The notes beneath the pieces are model-generated. The model was given only the letters and a program-made list of their open reading frames with translations. It did no database searches and was not told where the DNA came from. From Caldimicrobium thiodismutans (GTDB lineage Bacteria > Desulfobacterota > Thermodesulfobacteria > Thermodesulfobacteriales > Thermodesulfobacteriaceae), in contig NZ_AP014945.1 of NCBI RefSeq assembly GCF_001548275.1, forward strand, positions 1,530,001 through 1,562,000: 32,000 nt of DNA, read 5' to 3'. The translations under genes and the position numbers were made by a program. Positions 10,535-29,443 of this stretch are shown here, piece by piece (the first letter of the stretch is position 1; each line of letters begins with the position of its first letter).

Positions 10535-11134
10535 TTACCAAGTCTTAAATCCCTCTAAGGTTTCTTTAATTTCCTTAGGTTCCCAGAATCTTAGGCCCAA
10601 GGAATCTGCCATGTAAAGGACTCCGCGGTCAGCAGATAGAACAACTCCATCCAGTTCAAGGGCAAGGAGAATAATTTCAAGGTCTTCCTTACTATCAACA
10701 ATTCCTTCTCTTAATACCTCTCTATACTTCCGTCGCAGGGACTTTAATACCTCCTCCGGCTTTTTATAGGTTAAGGCTTTGACAGCCTCTTCAGCAATTC
10801 TTAATCCCTTATTGATACGGTTGCGGATTTCATCAATAAATTCATACATTAAAAAAGCAGGAATATAGAGTTCATATTTTTTCGGTGACTTAACTTTAAG
10901 CACTGATCTTGCTTTGGGAGGAATTTTCATCTGAGAAATCATTCTTTTCAACTCATCATAAACAGAGGTAGGTATATAGACACTTACATCCCCCTCAAGT
11001 TCTGCCACAAGGAGAAGAAAGTTCTGAAAGGCAGAAAGAGGGTCTTCTCCAAACTGATGATAGACATCTGGGTTGGTAAAAATACTGGTATCAGGAATTA
11101 ATCTTTCCTTTTCCATGGGAATGATTTTAAACAA
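10535..11134 (-). CDS. PIN_5/UPF0278-family metallonuclease, candidate HARP (protein-only minimal RNase P)
   Basis: 199 aa. N-terminal acidic PIN motif (LIPDTSIFTNPDVY), central RNRINKGLRIAEE, and C-terminal KYREVLREGIVDSKEDLEIILLALELDGVVLSADRG. As I recall it, this is the pattern of Aquifex Aq_880 and the archaeal MJ0950 family. The size also fits (about 23 kDa). Confidence 0.65.
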   Translation of the reverse strand: MFKIIPMEKERLIPDTSIFTNPDVYHQFGEDPLSAFQNFLLLVAELEGDVSVYIPTSVYDELKRMISQMKIPPKARSVLKVKSPKKYELYIPAFLMYEFIDEIRNRINKGLRIAEEAVKALTYKKPEEVLKSLRRKYREVLREGIVDSKEDLEIILLALELDGVVLSADRGVLYMADSLGLRFWEPKEIKETLEGFKTW

Positions 11135-11196: not shown

Positions 11197-12270
11197 ATGA
11201 TTATGCGGTTGAAACTTGCCTTGATTGGATGTGGAAAAGCTGCTGAGCGCCACCTCAAAATTTATCAGGCTTTAAAGGATGAGGTGGAAGTGGTTGCTGT
11301 ATCAGATCTAAATCCTGAGAGAGTTAAAATTTTTTCTGAAGCCCTATCTGCTAAACCCTATACAGATTTTCAAGAGATGCTTAAAAGAGAACCTGTAGAT
11401 GTGGTTGACCTTGCCGTTCCATCAGGTCTTCATAAAAAAGTGGGAGAAATTATTCTAAAAAAATTTCGTAAGCATCTTCTGGTGGAAAAACCTCTTGCTC
11501 TTACTCTTAAAGATGCAGAAACTCTGGTAAATTTAGCGGAAAGATATCAACTTAAGCTGGTAACCATTTTTCAAAATAGAGCCAATCTTCCTGTAATTAA
11601 GGTTAAAGAACTTCTTGATAAGGGTTTTTTTGGGAAAATTGTGCTACTTTCAGTAAAGTTTTACTGGTCAAGGAGACAGAATTACTATGACAGTGCAAGT
11701 TGGAGGGGCACCTGGGCTTATGATGGAGGAGCCCTTGCCCAACAGGGTTGTCATTTTGCTGATATGATGACCTATCTTTTAGGAGAGGTTGAAAGCTCTT
11801 TTGCCAAAATGGGAACCTATCTTGTAAATATCGAGGCTGAAGACCTTCTTGTGGGAACCGTTAAATTCAAAAATGGAGCCCTTGGAACAATTGAAGCCAC
11901 AACCTGTGCAAGACCAAAGGACATAAAAGCCGAGGTGGTTTTGCTGGGAGAAAGGGGCTCAGCAATTATTGGAGGATTTGCCATGAATCGGCTTGATTAT
12001 CTTTCCCTTGAAGGAGTTGAAGATCCCACCCCACTCATAGAGGGATACAGGGAAAATCCCCAGCATCCCCTTGGATATTCTCACTTTAGTTATATAAAAT
12101 CAGTCTTTGAGTATTTTAAAAAGGGAGAAAGGGCACCTTATCTTGCTGTTGGAGAAGATGCCCTTCCTTCTCTTCAGCTTATTATCGGACTTTATGAATC
12201 GGCAGAAAGAGGAAAAGAGATTCACTTTCCCTTTAAACCAAGATACTGCAAACTTGGAAAAGGAGTATAA
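11197..12270 (+). CDS. Gfo/Idh/MocA-family nucleotide-sugar dehydrogenase (WbpB/GnnA-like 3-oxidase candidate)
   Basis: 357 aa with a Rossmann N-terminus (LALIGCGKAAERH), an EKP motif (LLVEKPLALT) and FQNRANLP. Sits 2 nt upstream of a DegT aminotransferase. Confidence 0.8.
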   Translation: MIMRLKLALIGCGKAAERHLKIYQALKDEVEVVAVSDLNPERVKIFSEALSAKPYTDFQEMLKREPVDVVDLAVPSGLHKKVGEIILKKFRKHLLVEKPLALTLKDAETLVNLAERYQLKLVTIFQNRANLPVIKVKELLDKGFFGKIVLLSVKFYWSRRQNYYDSASWRGTWAYDGGALAQQGCHFADMMTYLLGEVESSFAKMGTYLVNIEAEDLLVGTVKFKNGALGTIEATTCARPKDIKAEVVLLGERGSAIIGGFAMNRLDYLSLEGVEDPTPLIEGYRENPQHPLGYSHFSYIKSVFEYFKKGERAPYLAVGEDALPSLQLIIGLYESAERGKEIHFPFKPRYCKLGKGV

Positions 12271-12272
12271 AA

Positions 12273-13385
12273 ATGCCCCAGATACCCCTTCTTGACTTAA
12301 GACGCGGTTTTTCTGAAATTGAAGAAGAGGTTTTAAAGGGTTTTAAAGAGGTTTTTCAAAGTATGAAAATTTTAAATGGTCCAAATTTACAGGCCTTTGA
12401 AAAAGAATGGGCTGAATATCTTGGAGTAAAACATGCCATAGGTTATAGTTGTGGGACCTCAGCCCTTCTTGCCAGTTTGCTTGCTTTAGGAATAGGGAAA
12501 GGAGATGAGGTTCTCCTTCAGGCAAATGGTTTTATTGCGGATTTTGAAGCAGTTTATTTTTCAGGGGCAGAACCTGTATTTCTTGAGGTTGATCCAAAAA
12601 CCTTTGGCCCTGATCTCAATGATCTCAGGAAAAAAATTACTCCTCGCACAAAAGCCCTTTTACTTATTCACATGTATGGACACCCCTGTGAGATGGATGA
12701 TATCCTTGAGATTTGTGATAAATATGGAATTATCTTGATTGAAGATGCCTCCCATGCTCATGGAGCTGAGTATAGGAGTAAAAAGGTTGGCACCTTTGGT
12801 AAAGTTGGATGTTTTAGTTGTGGACCTGTTAAGAATTTAAATGCTGTCGGAGATGCAGGAGTTGTTGTTACCAATGATGATGAACTTGCCTTCAAGTTAA
12901 AATATTTTCGTGTTCATGGCCAGGTTGAAAAAAATCACTCCCATTTTCCTGGATTAAATACCCGCCTTGATGAGCTTCAGGCAGTAATATTAAGGGCAAG
13001 GCTTAAAACCCTTGACCAAAAAAATGAAAAGAGAAGAGAAATTGCAAGGTATTACACAGAAAAGCTTTCAGAAATACCTGGGCTTTTACTTCCCCCTCTT
13101 GATCCACCTCATAAAAAAAGTGTCTATCATCGTTATGTTATCGGGACTTCAAAGAGGGAAGAATTAATAAAATTTTTGAAAGAAAGAGGAATAGGAACAG
13201 GTTATTATTATCCCATTCCCCTGCATCAACACAGAGCCTATTTTGAGACCTTTGGGAAATCTTGGAATCTTCCCCAGGCTGAAAGGCTTGCAAGGGAACT
13301 TGTGGCCATTCCCATTTATCCCGAGCTCACTCAGGATGAAATTGATTATATAGTTGACTCAATTAAAGCTTTTTTTAACGCTTAA
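12273..13385 (+). CDS. DegT/DnrJ/EryC1/StrS-family PLP-dependent sugar aminotransferase (GnnB/WbpE/ArnB-like)
   Basis: 370 aa with typical family blocks (FEKEWAEYLGVKHAIGYSCGTSAL, EDASHAHGAEY) and the catalytic-lysine block FSCGPVKNLNAVGDAGVVVTND. Tightly coupled to both neighbours (2-nt gaps). Confidence 0.9.
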   Translation: MPQIPLLDLRRGFSEIEEEVLKGFKEVFQSMKILNGPNLQAFEKEWAEYLGVKHAIGYSCGTSALLASLLALGIGKGDEVLLQANGFIADFEAVYFSGAEPVFLEVDPKTFGPDLNDLRKKITPRTKALLLIHMYGHPCEMDDILEICDKYGIILIEDASHAHGAEYRSKKVGTFGKVGCFSCGPVKNLNAVGDAGVVVTNDDELAFKLKYFRVHGQVEKNHSHFPGLNTRLDELQAVILRARLKTLDQKNEKRREIARYYTEKLSEIPGLLLPPLDPPHKKSVYHRYVIGTSKREELIKFLKERGIGTGYYYPIPLHQHRAYFETFGKSWNLPQAERLARELVAIPIYPELTQDEIDYIVDSIKAFFNA

Positions 13386-13387
13386 AA

Positions 13388-14302
13388 ATGAGTCAGAAGC
13401 TTATTTCTATTCTTATACCCATGCACAACGAAGAGGGAAATGTGGATCTGGTGTATAGTGAAGTAAAGGCTGTTTGTGAGGAGATAAAAAGTGAAAGAGG
13501 CTATGATTACGAAATCCTTTTTGTAAATGATGGAAGCACTGACAGGACTCTTGAAAAGTTAAAAACTCTGAAGGAGAAAGATGGGAGAATAAGAATTCTT
13601 AATATGGATAGAAATAGAGGAGAGGCAGCGGGTTTAACAGCGGGTTTTCAGCTGGCAAAAGGGGATTTCATCTTTACCATGGATGGAGATGGCCAAAATG
13701 ATCCGAGATATTTTAAAGAGCTTCTTTTAAAGCTTGAAGAGGGCTATTTAGTTGCAACTGGCTATCGTCTAAAGAGAAAGGAGCCTTTATTAACCCGCAG
13801 GATACCCTCCTTTATAGCAAATCGTATCATTGCCATAGTTACAGGTGTTAAAGTAAGGGATAACGGCTGTTCCCTTAAGGGATATGTAGCTGAGATTCCT
13901 AAAAGGGTTCAAATTCCCCATGGATTTCATCGCTTCTTACCTGCCCTTTTTGGAGTTAAAAATGAAGAGGTTGCAGAAATCCCGGTTCTTGATAGAAAAC
14001 GCTACTGGGGACGCTCTCACTATGGCTTAAAAAGAACTGTTGAGGTTTTAAGGGAACTTATAACCTTTCCCTTTTTGAAAAGGTCTGTGTTTTATGAGAA
14101 ATTTTTTAAAGTCTGGAGTATTCTCCATGTGTGCGCCCTTTTTCCCGTAGGTATCTCGTTGATATTAAAACCTGGTCTTATAAAGGGTTCTCTATTTTTT
14201 GCCCTTTTTCTTGGTGCCTTAGTAAGTTATGTGATTCACAAAAATTTAAAGCGCTTTAATCTTGCTCAAAGGGAAGGTGTCTTTAAGGTTGAAGATTTGT
14301 AA
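13388..14302 (+). CDS. GT2 polyprenyl-phosphate glycosyltransferase (ArnC/GtrB/DPM1-like)
   Basis: 304 aa with a GT-A domain (ISILIPMHNEEGN, FVNDGSTDRT, FTMDGDGQNDP). Two C-terminal hydrophobic helices match the membrane-anchored ArnC/GtrB class. Confidence 0.85.
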   Translation: MSQKLISILIPMHNEEGNVDLVYSEVKAVCEEIKSERGYDYEILFVNDGSTDRTLEKLKTLKEKDGRIRILNMDRNRGEAAGLTAGFQLAKGDFIFTMDGDGQNDPRYFKELLLKLEEGYLVATGYRLKRKEPLLTRRIPSFIANRIIAIVTGVKVRDNGCSLKGYVAEIPKRVQIPHGFHRFLPALFGVKNEEVAEIPVLDRKRYWGRSHYGLKRTVEVLRELITFPFLKRSVFYEKFFKVWSILHVCALFPVGISLILKPGLIKGSLFFALFLGALVSYVIHKNLKRFNLAQREGVFKVEDL

Positions 14303-15891
14303 AAAATATAATAATTTTTGGATTTATCACCCTTAGTCTCAAATTTTTCCATTTTATAACCTTCTTTTTGAAAGAGATTTAACCATTCTTCTTTTAGGTT
14401 TTTTCTTATAATGATAATCTTACATTTTGAAAGGGCCTCCTCAGGCTTTTTCAAATCTTCAACTTTTTCCTTTATTTCTGCATAAAAATAAAAATTAGCT
14501 ACAGGTCTCTCTTCCAAAGAGAGACTGCAGATTTTTAGATCTTGATTTTTTTCTGAGAGCCTTTTAACAAATAAACCGCTTTCTTTTTCTGTGCTTGAAC
14601 TATAGGCTGGCTGAAGAAAGGAAAAATAGAGAATCTCTGAAAGTAAAAAAATTAAAATTATACTTAAAAATTTTTCCGAAAGTTTAGAGATTTTTATAGA
14701 TTTTATAAGTAAAAAGATCTGGGCAATTATTGTAAACCCAAAGCCTATCCACAAATTTGGGTTAAAAGGATAACCCTTTTTATGAAGAAAATAAAGGGAA
14801 ACAAGGCTCAAAAAAGGTAAAAAAAGGGCTATTCCTTGATGGAGTTTAACTAAAAAGAACTCTTTTAAATTTTTTAGATAAAAGGTAAGGGTGATTATAG
14901 TAAAGGGAAGGATAGGTAGAAGGTAATATCCCCTTCTTGCTTTAGCAAGAGTAAATAACAAGAAGATAAAGAGGTTAGTTAAAAAAAAGAGTTTTTCATT
15001 TTGGGAAAGACTTTTAAAGTTTTTAAAGTTTTTATAAAGAGCTAAGGGAAGAAAAAGGCTGAAAGGAGCAATCCACAGGGGCCAGAAGTAAAAATAGATA
15101 TAAAAGGGTCTCAAATTATCATAGGGATCTACAGCTTGTTTTAGATTTTCCCTAAACCAGAGATAAAAGGGAAGCTGGGTTTGAAGTTCCTTTGAGATAA
15201 GATAATAGTGGAGAAAATAAAGGGAAACTCCGAGGGCTAAAATTATGAAAAGTTTGGGGTTAAAGTGATAGAATCTGCGAAAAAGAACAATGTCAAGCCC
15301 TACAAAAAGACCTAAAACAGCTACTGCAGTAAGACCTTTACTTAAAGCCCCAAAGAGAAGGGCAAATATGAAAAGGGTATATCCTGTAAAGGATGGTTTT
15401 TCCCGATAGTAGATATAAACTGTTAGAGCAGAAACAATGCCGAATAGTTGATAGATTTCCGATTGGGAAAGTCTTGAAAATTCAAGAAAGCCAAGGGAGG
15501 CTCCATAAAGGGCGGTTCCAATAAGGGCCCATTCTTTTTCAAAAAGTTTTTTAGCAAGAAAATAAAAAATGAGGACAGAAAATAAGCCGAGGAGAGCCCC
15601 TGGAAGCCTAACAGTAAATTCAGAAAAGCCAAAAAGCTCTCCACTAATTTTTATAAGCCAAAAGGGAATAAGGGGTTTGGTCACATGGGGTTCAAAATTT
15701 ATAGTGGGAACAAACCAGGAGCTTCTCAAAGACATTTCCCTTGCCCCTTCTGCCCATCTTCCCTCAACCCCAAAAAGTGGCCTCTCCCAGAGATTCAAAA
15801 AGATTCCAGAAAATAGCAAACCAATAAAAAGTAACCTTAGTAAATCAAAAATTTGAATGGTGTTAATAATTTTGTGTATAAAATTTTTCAT
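14266..15891 (-). CDS. ArnT/PMT-like GT-C glycosyltransferase (GT39/GT83 class), polytopic membrane protein
   Basis: 541 aa with many TM helices. The first periplasmic loop motif (EGRWAEGAREMSLRSSWFVPTINFEPHVTKPLIPFW) resembles the ArnT E-x-RYAE...KPPL signature. GAGGGGG RBS lies upstream of the ATG. Confidence 0.8.
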   Translation of the reverse strand: MKNFIHKIINTIQIFDLLRLLFIGLLFSGIFLNLWERPLFGVEGRWAEGAREMSLRSSWFVPTINFEPHVTKPLIPFWLIKISGELFGFSEFTVRLPGALLGLFSVLIFYFLAKKLFEKEWALIGTALYGASLGFLEFSRLSQSEIYQLFGIVSALTVYIYYREKPSFTGYTLFIFALLFGALSKGLTAVAVLGLFVGLDIVLFRRFYHFNPKLFIILALGVSLYFLHYYLISKELQTQLPFYLWFRENLKQAVDPYDNLRPFYIYFYFWPLWIAPFSLFLPLALYKNFKNFKSLSQNEKLFFLTNLFIFLLFTLAKARRGYYLLPILPFTIITLTFYLKNLKEFFLVKLHQGIALFLPFLSLVSLYFLHKKGYPFNPNLWIGFGFTIIAQIFLLIKSIKISKLSEKFLSIILIFLLSEILYFSFLQPAYSSSTEKESGLFVKRLSEKNQDLKICSLSLEERPVANFYFYAEIKEKVEDLKKPEEALSKCKIIIIRKNLKEEWLNLFQKEGYKMEKFETKGDKSKNYYIFYKSSTLKTPSL

Positions 15892-16089
15892 ATTTTGCCC
15901 CCTCGTGTTCCTTCAATTTCTCTCATCTTCTCTCTCCAATTATTTTGATCTTTCTTGCCTGAGTTTTTTAGTATATATTATAAGATACTTCTTTTTTTGT
16001 AAAACACCCGCTGGTATACATAGTGTAAATTCTCTGAATCTAAATATAAAGACTTCCTTGAATAGGGCTTCAAATCTTGGGTCTCAATA

Positions 16090-16117
16090 TTGGTATTTTA
16101 TGGTTCAATGATATAAT
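16090..16117 (+). promoter_or_regulatory. Candidate sigma70-type promoter for the WaaL-like gene (TTGGTA-N16-TATAAT)
   Basis: TTGGTA at 16090-16095 and TATAAT at 16112-16117 with a 16-nt spacer, about 30 nt upstream of the 16148 ATG, in a 256-bp divergent intergenic region. This AT-rich DNA makes chance matches likely. Confidence 0.25.
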
Positions 16118-16147
16118 AAAGGCAATTTTTTAAAAAGCAAAGGGAAA

Positions 16148-17455
16148 ATGGCAGAAGAAATTAAAAAGTTGGATAAAATTCTTAAAAGTTTTTTTTATTT
16201 TGGATGGACTTTACTTTTGATTTCTATATTTTTTAAACATACGAAAACTCTTTGGTGGATAGGAAATAGTTTGATTTTTTTATTTATATTTGTATTTTTT
16301 TTATTAAATAAAGAAATCTTTAAATTTTTTTATAAGTTAAGAGAGCTGAAAAATTTATTAATTATTCTTGCCATTTTTCTTTTTTTGTTACTTCTTTTTT
16401 CATTATTTATTAGTTTAAATAGGATTTATTCAATTGAAGCTTTTATTACAAATTATTTTTTTAATATTATTGTTTTTTTAAGTTTGGTATGTTTAATCTG
16501 TTTTTATAAAAATAATAACATTATATTGATATTGTTTATTTTAATATCTTTTGTCTATGTAATGTTTGTGATGTATTTATTAATGTTTTTTGGTAATTTG
16601 TGTGAATTAAATCTATCATGTTATGTTCTCTCTATTAGTAATGAGATATTTGAAGATGCCATTCTTCAAAAACCTTTAACTATATTGCCCTCAGCTTATC
16701 TTTTATGCTTTAGTGTATTTCTTATAGGTTTTATTACTGAAAGAGGCAAATTGAAATATCTGTTTTTAGTTCTTTTTAGTATTGCTTTTTTGATTATCCT
16801 TTGGTTTAATAGGCGAGCTATATTATTAGGAATTTTTTTGAGTTTGATTTTTTTTATATTTAATGCCCAATCTAAATATATTAAAAAGTTTGTTCTTTTC
16901 TTAACTGGCCTTTTTTTCATATTAGCGTTTTTAATTTTTAATAATCCTTTACTTAAAAATATGTTTTTAGGAAGGGATAACCTTTCAATACTAATTTCTA
17001 AAAATTACGAAGATTTTCCACAAAGTGGATCGCTTGGGATACGATTATATACATGGCCAATTTATATAAAGTATCTAATTAAAAATCCAGTTAAAGGAAC
17101 AGGTATTGGTAGAAAAGTTCAAAAAATAGCAATTGAGAAGGAGAATCTAGATCCTTTAGGAATTGGGAATCCTCACAATACTTTTTTAAATATATGGATG
17201 CAAGCAGGGATTCAAACTTTAATTGTTTTTTTATTACTTTATTTTATGACATTAAAAAGAGCCTTAGAATTATTTAGTTCAAGAATATTCCCCTATGATA
17301 GATTTGGTATTGGATTGGTAGTTTTTTTCATAGCTTGCTTTGTTTATATGAATTTTTTTGGAATGGAAGAAGGAACTCGCTTTGCGCCATTCTGGATAGC
17401 CTCAGGATTAACTTGGGGGTTATGGACAAAATTAAAACTTTCAAATTGGGTCTAA
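16148..17455 (+). CDS. O-antigen ligase/polymerase family (Wzy_C, WaaL-like) membrane protein
   Basis: 435 aa, very hydrophobic. Wzy_C-type periplasmic loop block GTGIGRKV...GNPHNTFLNIWMQAGIQTL. Markedly more AT-rich than its neighbours. Confidence 0.75.
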   Translation: MAEEIKKLDKILKSFFYFGWTLLLISIFFKHTKTLWWIGNSLIFLFIFVFFLLNKEIFKFFYKLRELKNLLIILAIFLFLLLLFSLFISLNRIYSIEAFITNYFFNIIVFLSLVCLICFYKNNNIILILFILISFVYVMFVMYLLMFFGNLCELNLSCYVLSISNEIFEDAILQKPLTILPSAYLLCFSVFLIGFITERGKLKYLFLVLFSIAFLIILWFNRRAILLGIFLSLIFFIFNAQSKYIKKFVLFLTGLFFILAFLIFNNPLLKNMFLGRDNLSILISKNYEDFPQSGSLGIRLYTWPIYIKYLIKNPVKGTGIGRKVQKIAIEKENLDPLGIGNPHNTFLNIWMQAGIQTLIVFLLLYFMTLKRALELFSSRIFPYDRFGIGLVVFFIACFVYMNFFGMEEGTRFAPFWIASGLTWGLWTKLKLSNWV

Positions 17456-19090: not shown

Positions 19091-19843
19091 TTATTTAAGA
19101 TTAAATTTTCTTTCTCGCTTTTTTCTTTTTTTAATCTTCAGTTCTGTATAGTATTCGTAATGAACTTTTCCTAATTCACCCAAGAGATTCTGATAGGCTT
19201 TGAAAATGAGAGTTCCTGCCTCTTTTAGACCAATCCACTCAAGGGTCATGGCAAGGGCTGAAAGATCTTTTAATCGCTCTTTTTTAGATAGGGAAGTTTC
19301 AAGAATTTTTATTCCATCAAGATCAAAGATTTTAAAGCCCTCTTTGGTGTAAAAAAAATTATTATACTTAGTATCCCTAAGAAGAATTCCCTTTTCATGA
19401 AGACTGAAAATGAAATTAACAAGATTTATAAGAAGGGTTTGGGAATTTTCCCTGAAAAAAAGTTCCTCTTTTAGAAAGCCTTCCTCTATAAAGGGATAGA
19501 GAATTCCCCCATAAAAGGGATGCCTTTTTAAATAGGAAAAGAGAGGCCTTTCATAAAAGATGAGGAGAGGATATAATACAGGAATATTTCTTTTTTTTAA
19601 CATTTGAAGATTTTTTATGAAGGCTTTAATTCTGTTTCGTTTAAAGAGTCTTGGTTGATAGACCTTAAGAAAATAAAGGGGTTTTTCTGAGTTGAAGGGT
19701 GAGAGCAAGAAAACAAGATGAGAGGGGGAACGCTTTAGAATTTTAAAGCTAAAGGGTTTAAGAAAAAGAGTTTCTGGGCTTTCAGCCTCACTATAAACAA
19801 AGAATTTAAAGTTTTTCCATTCAGGAAAAAGTATTTCAAGCAT
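19091..19843 (-). CDS. Lipopolysaccharide kinase (Kdo/WaaP/RIO-like) family protein
   Basis: 250 aa with protein-kinase-like blocks: candidate ATP-binding Lys (YFLKVY), catalytic-loop-like GILLRDTKYNNFF and metal-binding-like KIFDLDG. LPS locus context. The motifs are degenerate, so the product call is tentative. Confidence 0.55.
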   Translation of the reverse strand: MLEILFPEWKNFKFFVYSEAESPETLFLKPFSFKILKRSPSHLVFLLSPFNSEKPLYFLKVYQPRLFKRNRIKAFIKNLQMLKKRNIPVLYPLLIFYERPLFSYLKRHPFYGGILYPFIEEGFLKEELFFRENSQTLLINLVNFIFSLHEKGILLRDTKYNNFFYTKEGFKIFDLDGIKILETSLSKKERLKDLSALAMTLEWIGLKEAGTLIFKAYQNLLGELGKVHYEYYTELKIKKRKKRERKFNLK

Positions 19844-20941: not shown

Positions 20942-21666
20942 ATGTATTTCATGAAAGATACCTTTTTTGAAAAAATAGGATATCCAAGCTGGGTTGAAAA
21001 AATTTTCTATTTAGGATTAATTTTTCTTTCCTTTGCTATTTTTTTAAAACATACAAAAGGTTTGTTTTGGTTTCAGAAAGATATATAAAAAAAATAATTT
21101 TAGTGTTATTAGCCATGGTAAGTGTATTACTTAGCCTTTTTATTTTAACACCCTTTGGTCAAGAAATTATGTTTAAATCTCGGGATAAGATAGAGTTGTT
21201 GCTAAGCATAAATAAGGAGGATTGGGCTAAAGCAGGCTCTATGGGATATAGACTTTATATCTGGCCCATATATTTGAAAAAATCTTTAGAAGAACCCTTT
21301 TCAGGAACAGGCCTTGGAAGAAGGGTGCAAAAAAGAGTTCTTTCTGAAACCAATAAAAAAGCCCTCTCCCTTGAGCACGCCCATAATATCTTCTTAAATA
21401 TAGCCCTTCAAGCAGGCTGGCATACTGCTCTTCTCTTTCTTATCTTTTATCTGGTTATCCTTAAAAAAGCCTATGGCCTTATAAAGGGGCCAAACTCAAG
21501 GCCCTATTATACAGGGCTTTTCATCTTTTTAATAGCCTTTTTTATTATGTCTCTCTTTGAAGGAATGGAGGAGGGGGTAAGATTTACTCCCTTCTGGATA
21601 GTTTCAGGGCTTATCTGGGGCTTTAATTTGAAAGAAAGAGAAAAAGCCCTTCTTGAGAATAGATGA
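20942..21666 (+). pseudogene. Internally deleted, frameshifted WaaL-like O-antigen ligase paralog
   Basis: A 48-codon ORF at 20942-21088 (VEKIFYLGLIFLSFAIFLKHTKGLFWF) aligns with residues ~13-38 of the 16148 ligase (LKSFFYFGWTLLLISIFFKHTKTLWW). It stops at TAA 21086-21088. The 21067-21666 ORF, in a different frame, aligns with residues ~242-435 (SERYIKK vs SKYIKK; GTGLGRRV...HAHNIFLNIALQAG; GMEEGVRFTPFWIVSGL). About 200 central residues are missing. Confidence 0.65.
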
Positions 21667-22805
21667 AAAATCTTCCAAAGGTTTCCCTTTTCCTTGATAA
21701 TAGAGCCAATCGGAGAAACATTCTTCAAGTTCTTGCCCTGGATAAGGCAGGTCTAAATCCAAAAATAATTGTTTTTAAAGACTTTCCAAAGGATCACTAT
21801 CTCTTTAAAAAAGGTTTAGGAGATAAGCTAATTTATCTTTCAAAAACAAGAAATGAAGGATTTCGCAAATTTTCCCTTAAGGTTCTCTTTGAACTTATCA
21901 AAATTCTGAGAAAAGAAAATATTAAAGTTGTCCTTACACAGAGATGGCGTCTTGTAAAATATTTAGTATTGGCTAAGTTGTTTTATCGAGATCTCAAGAT
22001 TATTTATCATCTTGTTATTGGAGGAAGGTTTGAAAGACTTAGAAGAAGAATTTTTTTGCGTCTTATTTCCCCTTTTTTAGATAAGCTCACTGTAAATAGT
22101 AAAGCCCTAAGAGAAGAAATTCTCAGGTATAGAGTATTTCCAAAAGAAAAAGTTGAGATTTTGTATTCTGCAGTGGATCCTAAGGAGTTTGAGCTTTCTT
22201 TAAGTAAGGAAGAGGCAAGAAGGAGGCTTGGGCTACAAGAGGAAATTTTTCTTTTTGGCATGATAGCTAAGTTCAGAAAGGAAAAGGATCAGGAAGGGCT
22301 TATTAAGACCTTTGCTGAGCTTTTGAAAGAGGAAGTTTCAGCCTGGCTTCTTCTTGCAGGAGATGGTCCAAATTGGGAGAAATGTAAAAGCCTTACTAAA
22401 GCCCTTGGGATTGAGGATAGAGTGTTTTTTCCGGGTAGAATTCATCTTGATGAGGTTCCTCTCTGGCTTAAAGTCTTAGATGTTTTTGTTTATGCTACCT
22501 TTAGAGAGGGTATGCCTATGGCTGTGCTTGAAGCCATGGCAAGTGGGCTTCCCATAATTGCTACCTCAGCTGAGGGTCTTCCTGATATCTTTGATACACC
22601 TCTTGAGATAGGAAGACTTGTTCCTATAGGAGATTACTCAGCATTAAAAAGGGCCATGAAGGAACTCTATGAACTTTCAGAGGAAGAAAGAAAAAAACTG
22701 GGAGAAAATGCCAGAAAAAGACTTAATGAGGGTTTTTCTCCTTCAGCTCTTGAAGAAAAAACCCTTTCCCTATTTAAAGAACTCCTCAATCAGAATAAGT
22801 CTTAA
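21663..22805 (+). CDS. GT4-family (GT-B fold) glycosyltransferase
   Basis: 380 aa with the block EGMPMAVLEAMASGLPIIATSAEGLPDIF...GRLVPIGD typical of GT4. Its start overlaps the stop of the upstream ligase remnant (ATGA). Confidence 0.85.
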   Translation: MKNLPKVSLFLDNRANRRNILQVLALDKAGLNPKIIVFKDFPKDHYLFKKGLGDKLIYLSKTRNEGFRKFSLKVLFELIKILRKENIKVVLTQRWRLVKYLVLAKLFYRDLKIIYHLVIGGRFERLRRRIFLRLISPFLDKLTVNSKALREEILRYRVFPKEKVEILYSAVDPKEFELSLSKEEARRRLGLQEEIFLFGMIAKFRKEKDQEGLIKTFAELLKEEVSAWLLLAGDGPNWEKCKSLTKALGIEDRVFFPGRIHLDEVPLWLKVLDVFVYATFREGMPMAVLEAMASGLPIIATSAEGLPDIFDTPLEIGRLVPIGDYSALKRAMKELYELSEEERKKLGENARKRLNEGFSPSALEEKTLSLFKELLNQNKS

Positions 22806-24327
22806 GAAAAATATTGTGATTGAACCAGGCTGAAATAAGGAAAAGACGCACAAAAAGTTTTTGAAAAAATTTATCATTCTTTGCCTTTTCTTTGATTTTT
22901 TCCCACAGATTTTTCAAAAACCCTTTTTCCCATAATTGACAAGAAAAAATTTCTTCCTCCACATAAAAGGATAGCCCTCTTAAAAAGTTATAGGCACTAA
23001 ATCCATAGGAAAATTTTCCAAGAGCATCTGAATCAAGATCAAGCTTTTCTTTAAGAATTTCCCTTAAAAGAATTTTATTTTTAAAGGTTTTTCTATCAAA
23101 GAGATATTTTTCTGGGAGGCTTCCTACATATTTTGCTAATTCTTCATCACCCCAGGGGAAGATAAAATTTAATTGATAGGCTTCGGCAAAATTTCGCACT
23201 TTTTGGGTAACAAGGGAGAGTTCAGCGTGAGTCCCCCAGAGATCGGCTTTTAAGTCAAAATAATCCCAGTTTTTACGGTCTTTTTCCCAGTTCTTAAATA
23301 TGGGATAAACTCTTTCAGCCTCTGGATAAATTTTTTTACAATCTCTAAAAGTAAAACCAAGAAGGTGATAAAAGGGATATTCACTCCGATAAAGAGAGAG
23401 TTTTTGGAGGGGATTCCCTGAGGGAAGGCGCTCGGAAAGGGGTTTTAAAAGGGATAAAACCGTATATAGATTTTGGCGTGTATATTCAACCTTTCTGGGG
23501 ACATGACCAAAGTAGACATCATTTCCTGATCCATCAAGGATAGTGTGACCTGAAAAGTCATATGTCAGGGTATAAAGAGGATAAGCAAGTGAGACTCCAT
23601 CTCCACAGGGAAGTGTAATGTTTGCAAAATATTTCTGTAAAATTTCTATATGTTTAAGTTCAGGCTTTTCAGGAACTGGTAATTTTATATGTCTAAATCC
23701 GAGTTTTTTAGCAAGTTTTTCTGCAATCTTACTTTCGTCTTTTCTATCTTCAGTTGCAAGAGTGCCAAAGATGGCTTTTTCTTGAAGGCCTGCCTCAGAA
23801 AGAGCAAGAGCTATAGTGTTACTATCTTTACCAAGACTTTGAAAAAGAAAAAGGGGACTTCCTTTATCCCATCTTTTAAAAATCGCCTCAATAATTAGGT
23901 TTAATAAATAATTTTTATCTGGTTTTAAATTTTTTTCTCTTTTTTGGTTAAAATAAGGAAATTCATGTTTAAACTCAAGGAGAAGACCTCTTTCTCCTTC
24001 GTAAATCTCAACCCTATCGCCTAAGGAGAGAACATAAAGGTTTTCAAATATGGTAAAGGGAGAGGGAATAAAGCCATACTGGAGAAAGAAAGTAAGGCCA
24101 AGGGGTGAAATTTTTAAAGGTTTAGAAACAAAGGGGTGGGAGAGAATATCCTTAGGATACTCTCCTAAAAGAAGAAGCTCCTTTTCTTGAAGATAGTAAA
24201 AATATATGGGATATCCTGCGGTTATGGGACCTTTTATAGTAAGAGGCAGGTCTTTTTTTTCTATTATTTTTATTGAATTCTTTGTCTCCATCATGGCAAA
24301 GGAGAAGTTATAGGGGTTTTCCTTCAT
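22786..24327 (-). CDS. Asparagine synthetase B-like ATP-dependent amidoligase lacking the N-terminal Cys nucleophile
   Basis: 513 aa with a PP-loop-like motif (LFLFQSLGKDSNTIALAL, compare SGGLDSS). The AsnB interdomain block FLQYGFIPSPFTIFENLYVLSLGDRVEI is present. The N-terminus is MKENPYN or MMETKN, with no Cys2. Confidence 0.65.
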   Translation of the reverse strand: MKENPYNFSFAMMETKNSIKIIEKKDLPLTIKGPITAGYPIYFYYLQEKELLLLGEYPKDILSHPFVSKPLKISPLGLTFFLQYGFIPSPFTIFENLYVLSLGDRVEIYEGERGLLLEFKHEFPYFNQKREKNLKPDKNYLLNLIIEAIFKRWDKGSPLFLFQSLGKDSNTIALALSEAGLQEKAIFGTLATEDRKDESKIAEKLAKKLGFRHIKLPVPEKPELKHIEILQKYFANITLPCGDGVSLAYPLYTLTYDFSGHTILDGSGNDVYFGHVPRKVEYTRQNLYTVLSLLKPLSERLPSGNPLQKLSLYRSEYPFYHLLGFTFRDCKKIYPEAERVYPIFKNWEKDRKNWDYFDLKADLWGTHAELSLVTQKVRNFAEAYQLNFIFPWGDEELAKYVGSLPEKYLFDRKTFKNKILLREILKEKLDLDSDALGKFSYGFSAYNFLRGLSFYVEEEIFSCQLWEKGFLKNLWEKIKEKAKNDKFFQKLFVRLFLISAWFNHNIFLKTYSD

Positions 24328-24988
24328 TTTTTCTTTTTAAGGTGCGAAAGCGGATGCGAGAGATTTTAAATTTCAAAAGAATTTTCTGTAAAGGAGATAA
24401 TCTTCCTGTTAACTCTTCGTAAAATTTTAGAAAGTTTTGAAAATAATGAGGGCCTTTTTCTCCCAGATATTCTTCAAAGGAATAACCAAGTTGAGCCAGA
24501 TCCTTCACTTGATAATAGAAGGAAAAGACCTTAGTATTTTTTATTCTTGCCACATCAAGAAAGGAAAGCCTCTTTGTTTCTTCATCCCAGTAAAAATGAT
24601 TGAGATAACAATCCTGATGAAAAAGATTTTCTTTATGAAGTTTTCCAAGAAGTAAAGAAAGAGCTTTTAAATATTTATCTTCTGAGTCTGATTTTTTTAG
24701 GATTTCTGAAAGAGGAGTTCCCCTTAAGGCCTCCATGCCGATAACTATTTTTTCTTTTTCTTCTTTTATAAAGAGGGGTTTTGGAACAGGAAATCCCTTT
24801 TCATAAAGAAACTTCAAATTTTCCCACTCCCTTTTCACTTCATCAAAATTATCAAAATACTCCTTTAGATAAAACTTCATACCCTCATATTCATATCCAG
24901 TTATTTTCCGATATCTTTTTTGATGAACAAAAAAGGGAGATTTCAAATCTTTAAGAGAAATTTCTTTAATCTTTTCTTCCCAAACCAT
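24308..24988 (-). CDS. WaaP/InaA-type lipopolysaccharide core kinase
   Basis: 226 aa. Catalytic block LFHQDCYLNHFYW resembles the WaaP/InaA HRDCYxCHF signature, followed by SFLDVAR. LPS locus context. Confidence 0.65.
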   Translation of the reverse strand: MVWEEKIKEISLKDLKSPFFVHQKRYRKITGYEYEGMKFYLKEYFDNFDEVKREWENLKFLYEKGFPVPKPLFIKEEKEKIVIGMEALRGTPLSEILKKSDSEDKYLKALSLLLGKLHKENLFHQDCYLNHFYWDEETKRLSFLDVARIKNTKVFSFYYQVKDLAQLGYSFEEYLGEKGPHYFQNFLKFYEELTGRLSPLQKILLKFKISRIRFRTLKRKNEGKPL

Positions 24989-25886
24989 GGAAAAGACTTT
25001 TTAAAAAGATTTTTGTCTTGAGTTTAAGAAGGGCTTTTTTCCTTTTACCAGAGGGGTAGATTTTTTCTGCTTCTTTAAGAAAGTTTTTGGCTAAAGGAAA
25101 ATTTTTTTGTCTATAAGCCCTTTTTGTGCCCTCTATGTAAGCAAGAAAAAGGGCATAGGGCTTTAAAGGTTGAAATTCTTCAGGTAAATCTTGAAAGAGA
25201 AGCTCTACTGATTCTTTGAGAGAGGAAAAATAATTTGCATCAGAATGTCTAAGTCTTTGGGGGTGTTCCCTGATGATGCCAAAAGCTTCATTTATTATTA
25301 AGGGGTTATGAAAAATAAGCCATTTGGCTTTTACTGAAAAATCTTCTCTTACTCTTAGCCCCGGGTGAAAGGGGTATCTATAAGCTACTTCTCTTTTTAC
25401 CACATATAAGGCTTCAGAATAAGCTCCTTCAAGATAGGCTTTAAATTTTTTTAAAGGATTCTCTTCCAGAGGAAAGGCCTTAAATTTAAGTTTTCCCCCC
25501 TTTTCTCTAAAAGTATTTAAAATTAAGACTTCAGGCCTCTTTTGAGAAATTAAATATTTAATTTTTTCAAGAGCTCCATTAAGAAGGATGTCATCGGAAT
25601 CAAGGAAAAAGATATACTGGCCTTTAGCAAGGTTTAACCCACTATTTCTTGCTTGAGAGACTCCAAGATTTTGGGAATGTCTATGTATCTTAACTTCAGA
25701 ATGATTTTGAGAGACCTCCTTTAAAAATTCCCAGGTTCCATCCTCTGAGCCATCATCAACCACAATTATTTCAATAGATTTGGAATTAACCTGTGACCAA
25801 ACCGAATTAAGAGTATCCTTTAAGAGGGTGAGGCGGTTATAAGTAGGTATTATTATAGAAAGAAGGGGTGATTCTAAGGTATTCAT
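24966..25886 (-). CDS. GT2-family glycosyltransferase (copy A)
   Basis: 306 aa with GT-A motifs (LSIIIPTYNRLTLL, IIVVDDGSEDGT, FFLDSDD). Paralog of 28036-28896. Confidence 0.85.
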   Translation of the reverse strand: MNTLESPLLSIIIPTYNRLTLLKDTLNSVWSQVNSKSIEIIVVDDGSEDGTWEFLKEVSQNHSEVKIHRHSQNLGVSQARNSGLNLAKGQYIFFLDSDDILLNGALEKIKYLISQKRPEVLILNTFREKGGKLKFKAFPLEENPLKKFKAYLEGAYSEALYVVKREVAYRYPFHPGLRVREDFSVKAKWLIFHNPLIINEAFGIIREHPQRLRHSDANYFSSLKESVELLFQDLPEEFQPLKPYALFLAYIEGTKRAYRQKNFPLAKNFLKEAEKIYPSGKRKKALLKLKTKIFLKSLFHGLGRKD

Positions 25887-26458
25887 AGTAAAACAGATAT
25901 TCCTCCAATTTCTGAGATAAGTTTTTCAATTTCTTCAGGTGGGAATTTTTTAACAGGTTCTCCAATCATAGCTTCACTTATTTTTTCTTCAATGACAGTT
26001 CCGTGAATGTGATCAGCTCCCCAAAGTAGCGCCATTTGAGCAAGGCCAATGCCAAGAAAGACCCAGTGAGCCTTAATATGGGAAAAATTATCAAGCACAA
26101 TTCTTGATAGGGCGATGGTTTTGAGTATTTTTTGAGCAGAAGGAGGTCTTAAATAGGAAAGCTTTGTATTTTCCGGGATAAAGGGAAGGGGAACAAAGGC
26201 TGAAAAACCCCCTGTTTCTTCTTGAATTTCTCTAAGTTTCAAAAGATGATCCACTACTTCTTCCTCAGTTTCAATGTGCCCAAAAAGGAGAGTGGCATTG
26301 GTTTTTATTCCGAGTTTATGGGCAGTTTTAGCAATCTCAATCCATCTTTCTGCACTTATTTTACCTTGATAAAGTTTTTTTCTAATTCTTTCAGAAAAAA
26401 CCTCGGCCCCACCCCCTGGAATTTCAGATAATTCTCTCTCTTTTTTCAAAAAAATCAA
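25883..26458 (-). pseudogene. C-terminal half of an MqnC/MqnE (CofH-like) radical SAM enzyme, N-terminally truncated (remnant A)
   Basis: The 191-aa ORF starts at the family block IPGGGAEVFSERIRKKL and continues NATLLFGHIETEEEVVDHLLKLREIQEETGGFSAFVPLPF...WGADHIHGT. The CxxxCxxC radical SAM half (about 170 aa) is absent because cysC occupies the upstream position. It has a TTG start overlapping the cysC stop. Confidence 0.7.
25924..26063. repeat. Direct repeat, copy A (140 bp, about 96% identical to 28934-29073)
   Basis: Manual alignment at a constant offset of 3010 bp gives about 134 of 140 identical positions with no indels. Flanking sequence drops to much lower identity. Confidence 0.85.
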
Positions 26459-27069
26459 ATTTTCTGTATTCCATGATTAAAAATTTTAGGCAGAATATAC
26501 TTTAATAAAAGATTGACTGACTCTTCAACAGTTATGAGATGGGTATCAATGATAAGGTCAGGATTTTCAGGCTCTTCATAAGGTGCTGAAACTCCAGTAT
26601 ACTCAGGAATTAATCCTTTAAAAGCTTCTTTATATAAGCCTTTTGGATCTCTTTGGGCACAAATTTCAATTGGGCAGCGACAGTAGATTTCAATAAAATC
26701 CTTGCCCAATAAATTCCTGAGATATTGTCGATCCCTTCTAAAAGGAGACACAAACGCGCAAAGCACTACAAGCCCTGCAGATAGCAATAGCTTAATAACT
26801 TCGCCTATGCGCCGGATATTTTCACTTCTATCTTCTGGTGAAAAACCAAGGTCAGAACATAATCCATGCCGGATATTATCTCCGTCCAGAGTAATAGTTT
26901 TAACTTTTAGATCATATAATTTGAGTTCTAATTGATGGGCTATAGTTGATTTCCCAGAACTCGGGAGGCCAGTAAACCAAATGACAAGAGAACGATGTCC
27001 GTTTAGATTTTCCCTCATTTCACGAGTGACTTCAGTTTTATGCCAAAATACTAATTTATTTTTTTTCAT
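26455..27069 (-). CDS. cysC: Adenylyl-sulfate (APS) kinase
   Basis: 204 aa with the P-loop WFTGLPSSGKSTIA, LDGDNIRHGL, FSPEDRSENIRRIGEV and the downstream PYEEPENPDL block, all typical of CysC. Confidence 0.93.
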   Translation of the reverse strand: MKKNKLVFWHKTEVTREMRENLNGHRSLVIWFTGLPSSGKSTIAHQLELKLYDLKVKTITLDGDNIRHGLCSDLGFSPEDRSENIRRIGEVIKLLLSAGLVVLCAFVSPFRRDRQYLRNLLGKDFIEIYCRCPIEICAQRDPKGLYKEAFKGLIPEYTGVSAPYEEPENPDLIIDTHLITVEESVNLLLKYILPKIFNHGIQKI

Positions 27070-27075
27070 ATTTAA

Positions 27076-28005
27076 TTATTTTTCATGCTTGAAAATAGGA
27101 TATTTAAATTTTTTAAGTAATGGGAAAGTTAGGAGAGTAACAAGAAATTTATATTTAAGAGGTAATTTTTTATGCCAATCAATATCTTTTTTAATGTAAA
27201 TTTCTTTTTTAAAGGATAGCTTTACTGGATTACCACCTACAAGATGCTTTTTTTTGAATAAAAATATTTTTTTTTCAAAATTGAAAAAAGGTTTAAAATT
27301 AAAAGCGTGTGTTAAACATGTTAAGGAGGCTTGTATATTATTAGTTAAATCTTCATATTTTATTAAATGATAATTTTTATGTTTGAAATTTAAGATCCCT
27401 AAATTATAAATATTCCATAATCTTGCTGAAGTAAAAGGGTGATATCTTTTCATATAAGATCTCAGTGCAGGATGATATTTTTCTTTAGTCCATGAATATG
27501 CAACTCCCCTTGGATCCCTTACCAGATGAATGATATAAAGCTCTATAGGTAAATCTTTTAAAACATATAAATAATGTGGTAATTTTGATGAATCAATAAG
27601 GATTTTGCAACCTGATATTTCAGCCACAGTTTTATAGAAATTCAAGATGAAATCTGAATACTTTTTTAATTCATTTTTATTTTGTAAAAGATATTTGTTT
27701 CGTTTATAATAATTTAAAATAGGAATATTTTCAACAATTTTTTGAAGATAATAGAGTTTTTCTAATTTATCTTTGCTCGGTAAAGAATTATTAAATAATT
27801 TTAATAGAACCTGCTTCCAAAAGGGGCAATCATCTATAGCTTCACCACAAGAACACAAAGGTTTTTCATAGCGTAAAAGATGCTTCCAGAGCAATCTTGC
27901 CTCACCTAAAGAAAAAGCATCATCTATTTCTCCAAGAATGGCATCAAGAAGGGTTGATCCTGATCTTCCAGCTCCAGCAATGTAAATCACTTTAGTTTCA
28001 GCCAT
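27076..28005 (-). CDS. PAPS-dependent sulfotransferase
   Basis: 309 aa. 5'-PSB loop IAGAGRSGSTLL lies at the N-terminus and the 3'-PB-like HLVRDPRGVAYSW in mid-protein. There is a Cys cluster CSCGEAIDDCPFW. It lies 6 nt upstream of cysC in the direction of transcription and is very AT-rich. Confidence 0.8.
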   Translation of the reverse strand: MAETKVIYIAGAGRSGSTLLDAILGEIDDAFSLGEARLLWKHLLRYEKPLCSCGEAIDDCPFWKQVLLKLFNNSLPSKDKLEKLYYLQKIVENIPILNYYKRNKYLLQNKNELKKYSDFILNFYKTVAEISGCKILIDSSKLPHYLYVLKDLPIELYIIHLVRDPRGVAYSWTKEKYHPALRSYMKRYHPFTSARLWNIYNLGILNFKHKNYHLIKYEDLTNNIQASLTCLTHAFNFKPFFNFEKKIFLFKKKHLVGGNPVKLSFKKEIYIKKDIDWHKKLPLKYKFLVTLLTFPLLKKFKYPIFKHEK

Positions 28006-28035
28006 AATCTAAAATACTAATTTTACCAAAAATTT

Positions 28036-28896
28036 TTAATATTTAAAGTTAAATATGCTACTGTGATAGCTTTTTCTTGCTTCCCTTAAATAAGTTAATG
28101 CAAGTTCTTTATTCCCAAATAAATAGGCCTTTTTGGCCAATTCAAGATAGGTAAGATATAAGGCATAAGGGTAAAGATGTTGAAAGTTAGATGGTAAATC
28201 TTTAAAAAGATAATCAATTGAGGATAAAGATTTTTCTATGTAGAAATTAATTAGATATCTCAAGCGATTAGGGTGATCTCTAATAAGAGCAATGGGTTCA
28301 TTGACAATTTTTATCTTATGCAGGGTTAACCACTTGGCCTTAATCACAAAGTCCTCCCGAACTTTTAAATCTTCTGGGAAGGTATAAAGTAGGGTAATTT
28401 TTCTTTTAACAAGATAAAGACCCTCAGAATAAGTTCCTTCAAGAAAGATTTTCAGGCGCCTGACCGGCAGATTTTCCTCTGGAAACTTTTTAAATTTCCT
28501 TTTTCCTTTTTTCTCTCGGAAAGTGTTGAATAAATAAACTTCATAAAGATTCCTTGCTACATGTTGGATAAGTTTTTCGAGTCCTCCAGAAATTAATAAA
28601 TCATCTGAGTCAAGAAAGAAGATATAATCTCCTTTAGCATATTTTAAACCTTTGTTTCTTGCTGAGGAAACACCCAGGTTTTTTTCGTGTCTAACTGCTT
28701 CTATATTTGGAGCAGCCTTTTCTAACTCTTTGAGATATTTCCAAGTTCCATCATTTGAACCATCGTCAACAACTATTATTTCAACAGGTTTATTTTTAGC
28801 CTGTGATAATAATGAGTTCAAAGTTTCTTTCAATAAAGAAAGACGATTATAGGTTGGAGTTATTATAGAAATGAGAGGCCTTTCAGAAAAAGTCAT
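28036..28896 (-). CDS. GT2-family glycosyltransferase (copy B)
   Basis: 286 aa with GT-A motifs (ISIITPTYNRLSLL, IIVVDDGSNDGT, FFLDSDD). By eye, roughly half to two-thirds of residues are identical to copy A. Confidence 0.85.
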   Translation of the reverse strand: MTFSERPLISIITPTYNRLSLLKETLNSLLSQAKNKPVEIIVVDDGSNDGTWKYLKELEKAAPNIEAVRHEKNLGVSSARNKGLKYAKGDYIFFLDSDDLLISGGLEKLIQHVARNLYEVYLFNTFREKKGKRKFKKFPEENLPVRRLKIFLEGTYSEGLYLVKRKITLLYTFPEDLKVREDFVIKAKWLTLHKIKIVNEPIALIRDHPNRLRYLINFYIEKSLSSIDYLFKDLPSNFQHLYPYALYLTYLELAKKAYLFGNKELALTYLREARKSYHSSIFNFKY

Positions 28897-29156
28897 ATTA
28901 AAACTAGTTCCCCACCAATTTCTTTTATCAATCTTTCAATTTCTTCGGGTGGGAATTTTTTAACAGGTTCTCCAATCATAGCTTCACTTATTTTTTCTTC
29001 AATGAATGTTCCGTGGATGTGATCAGCTCCCCAAAGTAATGCCATTTGAGCAAGGCCAATGCCAAGAAAGACCAAGTAAGCCTTTACCTCTTCCTTAGTT
29101 TCAAGATGTCCAAAAATGTGCCTGAAAAGATGGTTAGCCTTTTTATCATGGGGATT
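28893..29156 (-). pseudogene. Second, more decayed remnant of the MqnC/MqnE-like radical SAM gene (remnant B)
   Basis: In-frame translation HDKKANHLFRHIFGHLETKEEVKAYLVFLGIGLAQMALLWGADHIHGTFIEEK aligns without gaps to remnant A (HKLGIKTNATLLFGHIETEEEV...KAHWVFLGIGLAQ...). It carries an in-frame loss of about 60 codons. A stop codon lies immediately upstream at 29157-29159. Confidence 0.6.
28934..29073. repeat. Direct repeat, copy B (140 bp, about 96% identical to 25924-26063)
   Basis: Same alignment as copy A. The mismatches I counted are at 28947, 29006-29007, 29016 and 29039-29040. Confidence 0.85.
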
Positions 29157-29371: not shown

Positions 29372-29443
29372 AGCCGGCGGTGGGGATTGAACCCACGACC
29401 TGTGGATTACGAATCCACTGCTCTGCCGCTGAGCTACGCCGGC
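29372..29443 (-). tRNA. tRNA-Thr (anticodon CGU), no encoded CCA
   Basis: Reverse complement reads GCCGGCG TA GCTC AGCGGCA GAGC A GTGGA TTCGTAA TCCAC AGGTC GTGGG TTCAATC CCCAC CGCCGGC T. It has a 7-bp acceptor stem, 4-bp D stem, 5-bp anticodon stem with loop TTCGTAA (anticodon CGT), a 5-nt variable loop and a T-arm with GTTCAATCC. Confidence 0.9.

Follow-up and report, generated by a model that had tools for sequence, protein, structure and literature searches.

Does a thermophilic sulfur disproportionator sulfate its own lipopolysaccharide (LPS)? The question arises from two adjacent genes of Caldimicrobium thiodismutans TF1, a 75 °C-class anaerobe with a genome of 1,814,952 bp. One codes for a predicted sulfotransferase (ST) that depends on 3'-phosphoadenosine 5'-phosphosulfate (PAPS), the other (cysC) codes for a kinase of adenosine 5'-phosphosulfate (APS), and both lie in an LPS-type locus. 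We analyzed the 32,000 nucleotides that contain them (NZ_AP014945.1, positions 1,530,001 to 1,562,000; hereafter the window, in whose coordinates positions are given). The explanation that we favor, and place just on the probable side, is that ST and cysC form a self-contained sulfation cassette, recombined into a locus of the lipid A-core type, that would sulfate an envelope glycan and most likely the lipid A-core itself.

The sulfotransferase and the APS kinase

A first-pass annotation of the window had described three tightly packed genes on the same strand, encoding a GT2 glycosyltransferase, a sulfotransferase and an APS kinase. The open reading frames (ORFs) and Pfam matches bore this out: GT2-B, ST and cysC are adjacent on the minus strand (Table 1), with a gap of 30 nt between GT2-B and ST and of 6 nt between ST and cysC. 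Every motif that had been quoted is present in the translations. ST carries GAGRSGST, RDPRGVAYS and CSCGEAIDDCPFW, the last with the cysteine cluster CSCG...C.FW; CysC has the P-loop GLPSSGKST, and GT2-B the DxD-type motif FLDSDD of a GT-A domain. GenBank names BAU23927 "sulfotransferase" and BAU23926 "adenylylsulfate kinase", and our literature search found no paper that discusses these two genes or the GT2 genes.

In the profile searches that the annotation had proposed, both proteins scored above the Pfam and NCBIfam cut-offs. ST matched Sulfotransfer_3 (PF13469; E = 7.5e-9, 36.6 bits, cut-off 27) and Sulfotransfer_1 (PF00685; E = 1.2e-5, 25.3 bits, cut-off 22). CysC matched PF01583 across the full profile (E = 6e-62), TIGR00455 with 243.6 bits (equivalog cut-off 138.7), and NF003013 with 265.5 bits (cut-off 163).

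Residue conservation in ST was judged in alignments of 24 and 120 sequences, with the 99% cluster representative P0001 standing in for the protein. The 5'-phosphosulfate-binding (PSB) loop reads G11-A-G-R14-S15-G16-S17-T18, and R14, G16, and T18 are invariant in the 120 sequences. In the 3'-phosphate-binding (3'-PB) pair, R163 is invariant and S171 at least 90% conserved. The full set of invariant or nearly invariant residues comprises R14, S15, G16, T18, E35, C51, C53, C60, W63, D138, K141, R163, S171, H254, N259, and P260. The family has two hallmarks, an invariant C-x-C-x6-C cluster (C51/C53/C60) and a C-terminal H-x4-N-P block. The C-x-C-x6-C-x2-W cluster and the invariant H254 in the 120 sequences suggest a putative structural metal site.

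The AlphaFold2 model of ST, built on the 120-sequence alignment, had a pLDDT of 94.5 and a pTM of 0.93. When it was compared with the PDB by Foldseek, the top 15 matches were all sulfotransferases (CurM ST, TPST1/2, OLS ST; E from 3e-7 to 1.4e-4, TM score about 0.55). The sole sequence-level PDB match was CurM ST (E = 0.0055), whose PRSGST, PPE, and LVRHP...S align with the loop, the Glu and the R...S pair of ST. The CurM and OLS ST domains and the TPSTs (PDB 4gbm, 4gox, 3ap1-3, 5wrj) were the best matches in both sequence and fold. They share with ST the PSB loop, the R...S 3'-PB pair spaced by 8 residues, and the Glu after β-strand 2, and differ from it in overall sequence (13-21% identity). 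On its profile matches, PSB loop, R...S motif, and predicted fold, ST is a member of the PAPS-dependent sulfotransferase superfamily. The structural check named in the first-pass annotation came out in its favor, since the confident model has the sulfotransferase fold and the PAPS-binding residues are conserved. Both the translation and the model start straight at β-strand 1 and the PSB loop, and ST therefore has no signal peptide.

The family is large. We obtained 2031 matches at E ≤ 1e-3 among the scored candidates and at least 587 confirmed ST-family stretches in species genomes, and a scan of metagenome contigs with the ST protein alone gave one irrelevant match (26%). No characterized family member turned up among the homologues.

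The annotation had cited Sinorhizobium LpsS as the best-known case of LPS sulfation. LpsS of S. meliloti belongs to the Stf0 family (PMC12445080) and is an LPS sulfotransferase (Cronan & Keating, 2004, as cited in PMC12445080). The Stf0 structure 1tex stood at rank 24 in the Foldseek list of ST (E = 3e-3, TMq 0.36). In the Pfam scan (E ≤ 0.01), PF13469 and PF00685 were the only matches of ST and none was to the Stf0 family, whose model is Sulphotransf (PF09037). By profile and modelled structure, the ST of the window is not in the LpsS/Stf0 family and is no relative of LpsS. What the two would have in common is the predicted outcome, PAPS-dependent sulfation of LPS. LpsS is not known to be linked to cysC in a cassette.

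A two-gene unit and its junctions

Homologues with at least 44% identity to ST were treated as a close clade. The broad family (29-37% identity) came from a pattern scan of genome contigs, consists mostly of distant homologues, and served as background for the linkage to cysC. The closest relatives (L002-L005, ST 63%) have overlapping ST and cysC genes followed by GT4 and Wzy_C, with convergent AsnB-like, Kdo kinase and GT2 genes. The order is ST, cysC, PMT_2, DUF2905 in L089/L090 (a WOR-3 metagenome-assembled genome, MAG; ST 46%) and ST, cysC in L097 (44%). In L085/L086 (45%) there is no cysC; PMT_2, a hypothetical gene, GT4 and a Kdo kinase diverge from ST, which converges on GT2 and a CofH-type radical SAM gene that is intact. 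L087 (44%) has ST and GT4, and L099 (46%) CofH_C, GT4, and ST. Counting the window, four of the six informative lineages of the close clade (the window, L002-L005, L089/L090, and L097) have cysC as the next gene downstream of ST. In the broad family, an APS kinase occurs within 10 kb in only 4 of the 79 loci, and a GT2 or GT4 gene near ST in about half.

A GT2 gene directly upstream on the same strand was found in none of the relatives that have the pair (L002, L089, L097). As read from these gene orders, the conserved unit is a two-gene ST-cysC cassette that excludes the GT2, which the first-pass annotation had counted as a partner; GT2-B is a diverged duplicate. The search for cysC homologues could not show the origin of the cassette, because APS kinase is too conserved.

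Each informative locus of the close clade has a Kdo/WaaP kinase, GT4, PMT_2, Wzy_C or GT2 gene beside ST, and this LPS-type context recurs at differing insertion points in at least five lineages. Such recurrence speaks for a functional tie to what the locus makes and against a role in secondary metabolism. The same annotation had named secondary-metabolite loci as the context that would tell against it, and envelope-glycan neighbors were present wherever the context of a close-clade gene was recovered. An ST with a PAPS-supply gene inside a glycan locus is found in the window (GT2, GT4, Kdo kinase, PMT_2, Wzy_C) and likewise in L002 and L089.

How the pair came to lie where it does can be read from a sister Caldimicrobium MAG (L093, GCA_049973155.1). 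This genome is collinear with the window from 26444 to 15225, in the order intact radical SAM gene, GT2, Kdo kinase, AsnB, GT4, Wzy_C, GT4, hypothetical gene, PMT_2, PMT_2. ST, cysC, and a second GT2 are absent at the corresponding position. The match to the L093 GT2 breaks off at 28020 and that to its radical SAM gene begins at 26444, at the cysC stop codon; similarity to the L002 cassette spans 28007-26482. A metagenome contig (L001) matched the window independently, with 99.8% identity over 26403-28977, across both junctions, and the arrangement is therefore no misassembly.

The acquisition of ST and GT2-B had been proposed because both seemed more AT-rich than the locus. This holds for ST (GC 27.0%, GC3 18%) but not for GT2-B (32.2%), which like cysC (36.1%) falls inside the range of the LPS locus. 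The other genes of the locus have 24-37% GC (most 31-37%; a Wzy_C gene 24%) and the flanking genes 39-45%. The sister locus without GT2-B, ST, and cysC is better evidence of acquisition than base composition.

Remnants of a radical SAM gene of the CofH/MqnE type flank the cassette. Remnant A matched TIGR03700 (MqnE) over positions 158-342 of 351 with 224.7 bits (cut-off 434.55), without the N-terminal radical SAM part. Against the intact protein of L093 (331 aa) it shows 88% identity over residues 146-331, and it is 78% identical to an intact 331-aa copy, BAU23849, that lies elsewhere in the TF1 genome. Remnant B was traced by tblastn with remnant A and by three-frame translation; its 60-aa ORF had no Pfam match, and over 70 aa it is 74-76% identical to intact homologues. 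By their sequence, the 191-aa and 60-aa ORFs are gene remnants and not full-length MqnE/CofH genes.

The remnants belong to two direct repeats (families D1, D4, and D8, spaced 3010 nt apart; blastn identity 74.6% over 519 nt). GT2-B shares 54% identity with GT2-A and 68% with the L093 GT2; between GT2-A and the L093 GT2 the figure is 59%. GT2-B has a C-terminus about 20 aa shorter than both but is otherwise intact. Cargo between diverged direct repeats of the 5' end of the locus fits a single-crossover integration, or an unequal recombination of two LPS-locus haplotypes. GT2-B would then be a duplicated allele of the first glycosyltransferase of the locus, a relic of the recombination by which the cassette arrived. 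Neither in the window nor in L002, L089, or L097 did the cassette junctions show shared repeats.

The radical SAM gene beside ST in L002 is unrelated to the remnants of the window (no tblastn match) and is not their source. The tRNA-Thr gene is unsupported as an integration site; its 3' end is not repeated in the window, which also lacks an integrase. This tRNA gene marks a boundary exactly: a flank of normal GC content, with an SNF transporter and a flavoprotein, gives way there to the AT-rich LPS locus.

O-antigen and LPS loci exchange by recombination in conserved flanking genes, as between galF and gnd in enterobacteria. The window resembles them in its AT-rich variable locus, in cassettes swapped among relatives, and in remnants of flanking genes at the junctions. 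It differs in that the anchor remnants occur twice, as direct repeats on either side of the cassette, and that the functional anchor gene (BAU23849) is elsewhere in the genome. A CofH/MqnE-type radical SAM gene adjoins the LPS-core-type locus upstream in L085/L086, L093, and L099, while the intact copy in C. thiodismutans and in L095/L096 instead precedes a MiaB-like gene. In these gene orders, the radical SAM gene seems to be a conserved recombination anchor of the LPS locus.

A second cassette replacement concerns the Wzy_C genes (16148-17455 and 21067-21666). A 199-aa Wzy_C remnant lies where L093 has a full 424-aa Wzy_C, and a full-length Wzy_C (GC 24%) lies between two PMT_2 genes, where L093 has a 92-nt spacer. 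The 582-kb MAG contig of L095 (GCA_017880035.1, JAEDZT010002866.1) encodes an ICDH 100% identical to that of the window. In a stretch of 14 kb it encodes both RNase Y and YmdB two times (191-2602 and 13969-16380), and it has a GT2-A homologue split into pieces of 145 and 144 aa; these duplications and the split gene are probably assembly or sequencing artefacts.

Table 1. Features of the ST-cysC region of the window
Feature	Position	Strand	Description
ST, BAU23927	27076-28005	-	309 aa; predicted cytoplasmic, PAPS-type
APS kinase CysC, BAU23926	26455-27069	-	204 aa
GT2-B, BAU23928	28036-28896	-	286 aa; PF00535, E = 6e-39, 134.1 bits
ST-cysC cassette (homology breakpoints)	26460-28007	-	
Radical SAM remnant A, BAU23925	25883-26458	-	191 aa, C-terminal 57% of a CofH/MqnE-type gene
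Radical SAM remnant B	28893-29117	-	last ~70 codons and an 11-codon relic (IFGHLETKEEV) across an internal deletion
Direct repeat copy A	25389-26074		radical SAM tail and 5' part of GT2
Direct repeat copy B	28399-29084		radical SAM tail and 5' part of GT2
GT2-A, BAU23924	24966-25886	-	PF00535, E = 3e-34; resident GT2 of the GT2/Kdo kinase/AsnB-like unit
Kdo/WaaP-family LPS kinase	24308-24988	-	PF06293, E = 2.5e-15, 56.9 bits; downstream of the cassette, co-directional
Asparagine-synthase-like amidotransferase	22786-24327	-	PF00733, E = 1.9e-8; ends the co-directional string
tRNA-Thr(CGT)	29372-29443	-	ARAGORN; Rfam tRNA, 71.1 bits

Candidate acceptors of the sulfuryl group

The locus around the cassette has the WaaP-like, WaaL-like, GT4 and ArnT-like neighbors that had been claimed for it. 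One Kdo/WaaP kinase is solid, and the second kinase-like ORF (19091-19843) had a weak Pkinase match below threshold. Two GT4 genes, two PMT_2 genes, one full Wzy_C, and one Wzy_C fragment complete the set; the PMT_2 pair is ArnT-like, yet far under the ArnT equivalog cut-off. The order GT2, Kdo kinase, AsnB-like is kept in L002 and L093, and farther upstream the window carries fabZ, lpxA, lpxI, lpxB, and lptE. The core of the first-pass reading is supported: the LPS-type locus contains an intact sulfotransferase of the PAPS type together with an APS kinase dedicated to it.

Two GFO/IDH/MocA oxidoreductase genes are also present in the window, one of them between lpxI and lpxB, and a DegT aminotransferase and an ArnC-like GT2 adjoin the two ArnT-like PMT_2 genes (set at 2228-3184, 11197-12270, 12273-13385, and 13388-14302). 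This set beside ArnT-like PMT_2 genes hints at an amino-sugar-based or glycosyl-modified lipid A. Promoter prediction gave 27 candidates against 19.9±5.7 in shuffled sequence, none of them convincing, and terminator prediction gave 4 against 7.0±2.9; neither count is above expectation. Rfam found nothing in the window except the tRNA.

In the explanation that we favor, APS would be supplied by the Sat/Apr pathway that serves energy metabolism, and CysC, which belongs to the APS kinase family, would phosphorylate it to PAPS. ST, soluble and without a signal peptide, would then use PAPS to sulfate a hydroxyl on some intermediate of the glycan that the locus builds. As PAPS and ST are both cytoplasmic, sulfation would take place on the cytoplasmic side of the inner membrane, ahead of the flipping of the glycolipid. 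The likeliest acceptor is a sugar of the lipid A-core, because the constant neighbors are the Kdo/WaaP kinase, ArnT-like PMT_2 and GT4/GT2 genes, and because the close clade lacks Wzx, Wzz, and an initiating transferase. The product would be LPS with a sulfate ester as an anionic group. GT2-B may or may not create the acceptor of ST.

Several points weigh against this explanation. We know of no LPS structure or sulfate analysis for C. thiodismutans, and the acceptor is not readable from sequence. No WaaA or heptosyltransferase was seen in the window, and the label "core" depends on matches to the Kdo/WaaP kinase, Wzy_C, and PMT_2 families, some of them weak. L085, with a close ST homologue, has no cysC within 10 kb. 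The nearest solved relatives of ST act on the hydroxyl of β-hydroxyacyl-ACP (CurM) or on tyrosine (TPST) and not on sugars. The presence of Sat is taken from a summary statement in PMC9948710 and not from the genome sequence. Lastly, the ST homologue of Thermodesulfobacterium hydrogeniphilum (37%) lies in a locus of the O-antigen or exopolysaccharide type (Wzz, initiating phosphoglycosyltransferase, Wzx, ST, Wzy_C, GT2, GT4), which suggests that the wider ST family also serves repeat-unit polysaccharides.

The cassette may instead sulfate another surface polymer made on undecaprenyl phosphate, such as an O-antigen, a capsule, an exopolysaccharide, or a protein-linked glycan, an alternative that we consider somewhat unlikely. 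The T. hydrogeniphilum gene, placed between Wzx and Wzy_C with the assembly genes close by, speaks for it, as do the GT2 or GT4 genes near ST in about half of the broad-family loci and the documented clusters for sulfated capsules and O-antigens that include ST and PAPS genes (PMC11641403). The Wzy_C proteins of the window could also be polymerases or O-oligosaccharyltransferases instead of WaaL. However, Wzx, Wzz, and an initiating transferase were found neither in the window nor in the close-clade loci, and the constant Kdo/WaaP kinase and ArnT-like PMT_2 are typical of lipid A-core modification.

It is distinctly unlikely that ST acts on an acceptor other than a sugar, whether a hydroxyacyl chain (CurM-like), some membrane lipid or small molecule, or a tyrosine (TPST/RaxST-like) in a peptide or protein that is secreted, and that its location in the LPS locus is incidental to recombination. 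CurM ST, OLS ST, and TPST1/2 are its nearest relatives in sequence and structure, and the locus, with its several gene remnants, is a hot spot of recombination. The structural likeness is nevertheless distant (TM score about 0.55, 13-21% identity), there are no polyketide synthase, peptide precursor or exporter genes nearby, and the LPS-type context has recurred independently, at differing insertion points, in those five or more lineages.

That the cassette is a non-functional passenger, recent DNA in a decaying, rearranged region and unexpressed or inactive, is very improbable: the flanking radical SAM pseudogene remnants, the truncated Wzy_C, the extreme AT content of ST, and the lack of a convincing promoter would fit it, but neither ORF is truncated and each family-invariant residue is kept, ST and CysC are 99-100% conserved at the protein level in an independent environmental assembly, and the genes form a tight co-directional string with overlapping stop and start codons.

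APS supply and significance

The window encodes no ATP sulfurylase, as had been claimed. Nearly every substantial non-nested ORF fits another family; a 199-aa ORF (10535-11134) left unscanned has too few residues to be Sat, CysD, or CysN, and the largest intergenic gaps are under 300 nt. As cysC stands alone, with neither cysD nor cysN, the APS would have to come from the dissimilatory Sat/Apr pathway.

The first-pass annotation had reasoned that APS would be abundant, and a lone cysC enough, if the host were a sulfate reducer. Dissimilatory sulfate reduction does not support growth of Caldimicrobium species (PMC4911364), and strain TF1 disproportionates elemental sulfur, sulfite, and thiosulfate (PMC12998232), so this premise failed as to the host. 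The idea of the APS supply is probably right in essence, as the Sat/Apr pathway is reported. In a set that includes C. thiodismutans, all but two named genomes were stated to encode the complete dissimilatory sulfate reduction pathway (PMC9948710), and APS is therefore expected as a catabolic intermediate. Our literature search gave this set-level statement only, and no sentence that names sat in C. thiodismutans.

The presence of sulfotransferase and PAPS-synthesis genes in glycan loci is a hallmark of sulfated polysaccharide synthesis, and horizontal transfer and strain variability were reported for the capsular polysaccharide (CPS)/O-antigen cluster of Vibrio sp. KMM 8419 (PMC11641403). The window is like that cluster in having a PAPS-type ST and cysC among the glycosyltransferases of a surface-glycan locus. 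Unlike it, the window has cysC only, without cysD and cysN, and its context is lipid A-core-like (Kdo/WaaP kinase, ArnT-like PMT_2) and not that of an ABC-transporter CPS. From its gene content, the ST-cysC cassette is a plausible further example of this recognized system. Already known are the association of ST and PAPS genes in glycan loci, LPS sulfation (LpsS of S. meliloti), and the GenBank names of the two genes. What is different here is the Cys-cluster branch of Sulfotransfer_3, cysC alone, a portable two-gene cassette, and a host that is a thermophilic sulfur disproportionator.

If the favored explanation is true, a cultured and sequenced thermophile, TF1, makes sulfated LPS through a very widespread ST family, and a natural control is available in the sister lineage that has the same locus minus the cassette. 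The lone cysC would draw on dissimilatory APS, and the host would presumably need little assimilatory sulfate activation. A broader proposal, which we regard as possible rather than probable, is that a mobile ST-cysC cassette in Caldimicrobium and neighboring thermophile lineages taps the dissimilatory APS pool and sulfates the lipid A-core by means of a Cys-cluster ST family that has no kinship with LpsS. It would be the first case outside rhizobia of a sulfated LPS core, and it would link the flux of energy sulfur directly to the charge of the outer membrane, where sulfate might spare or replace phosphate.

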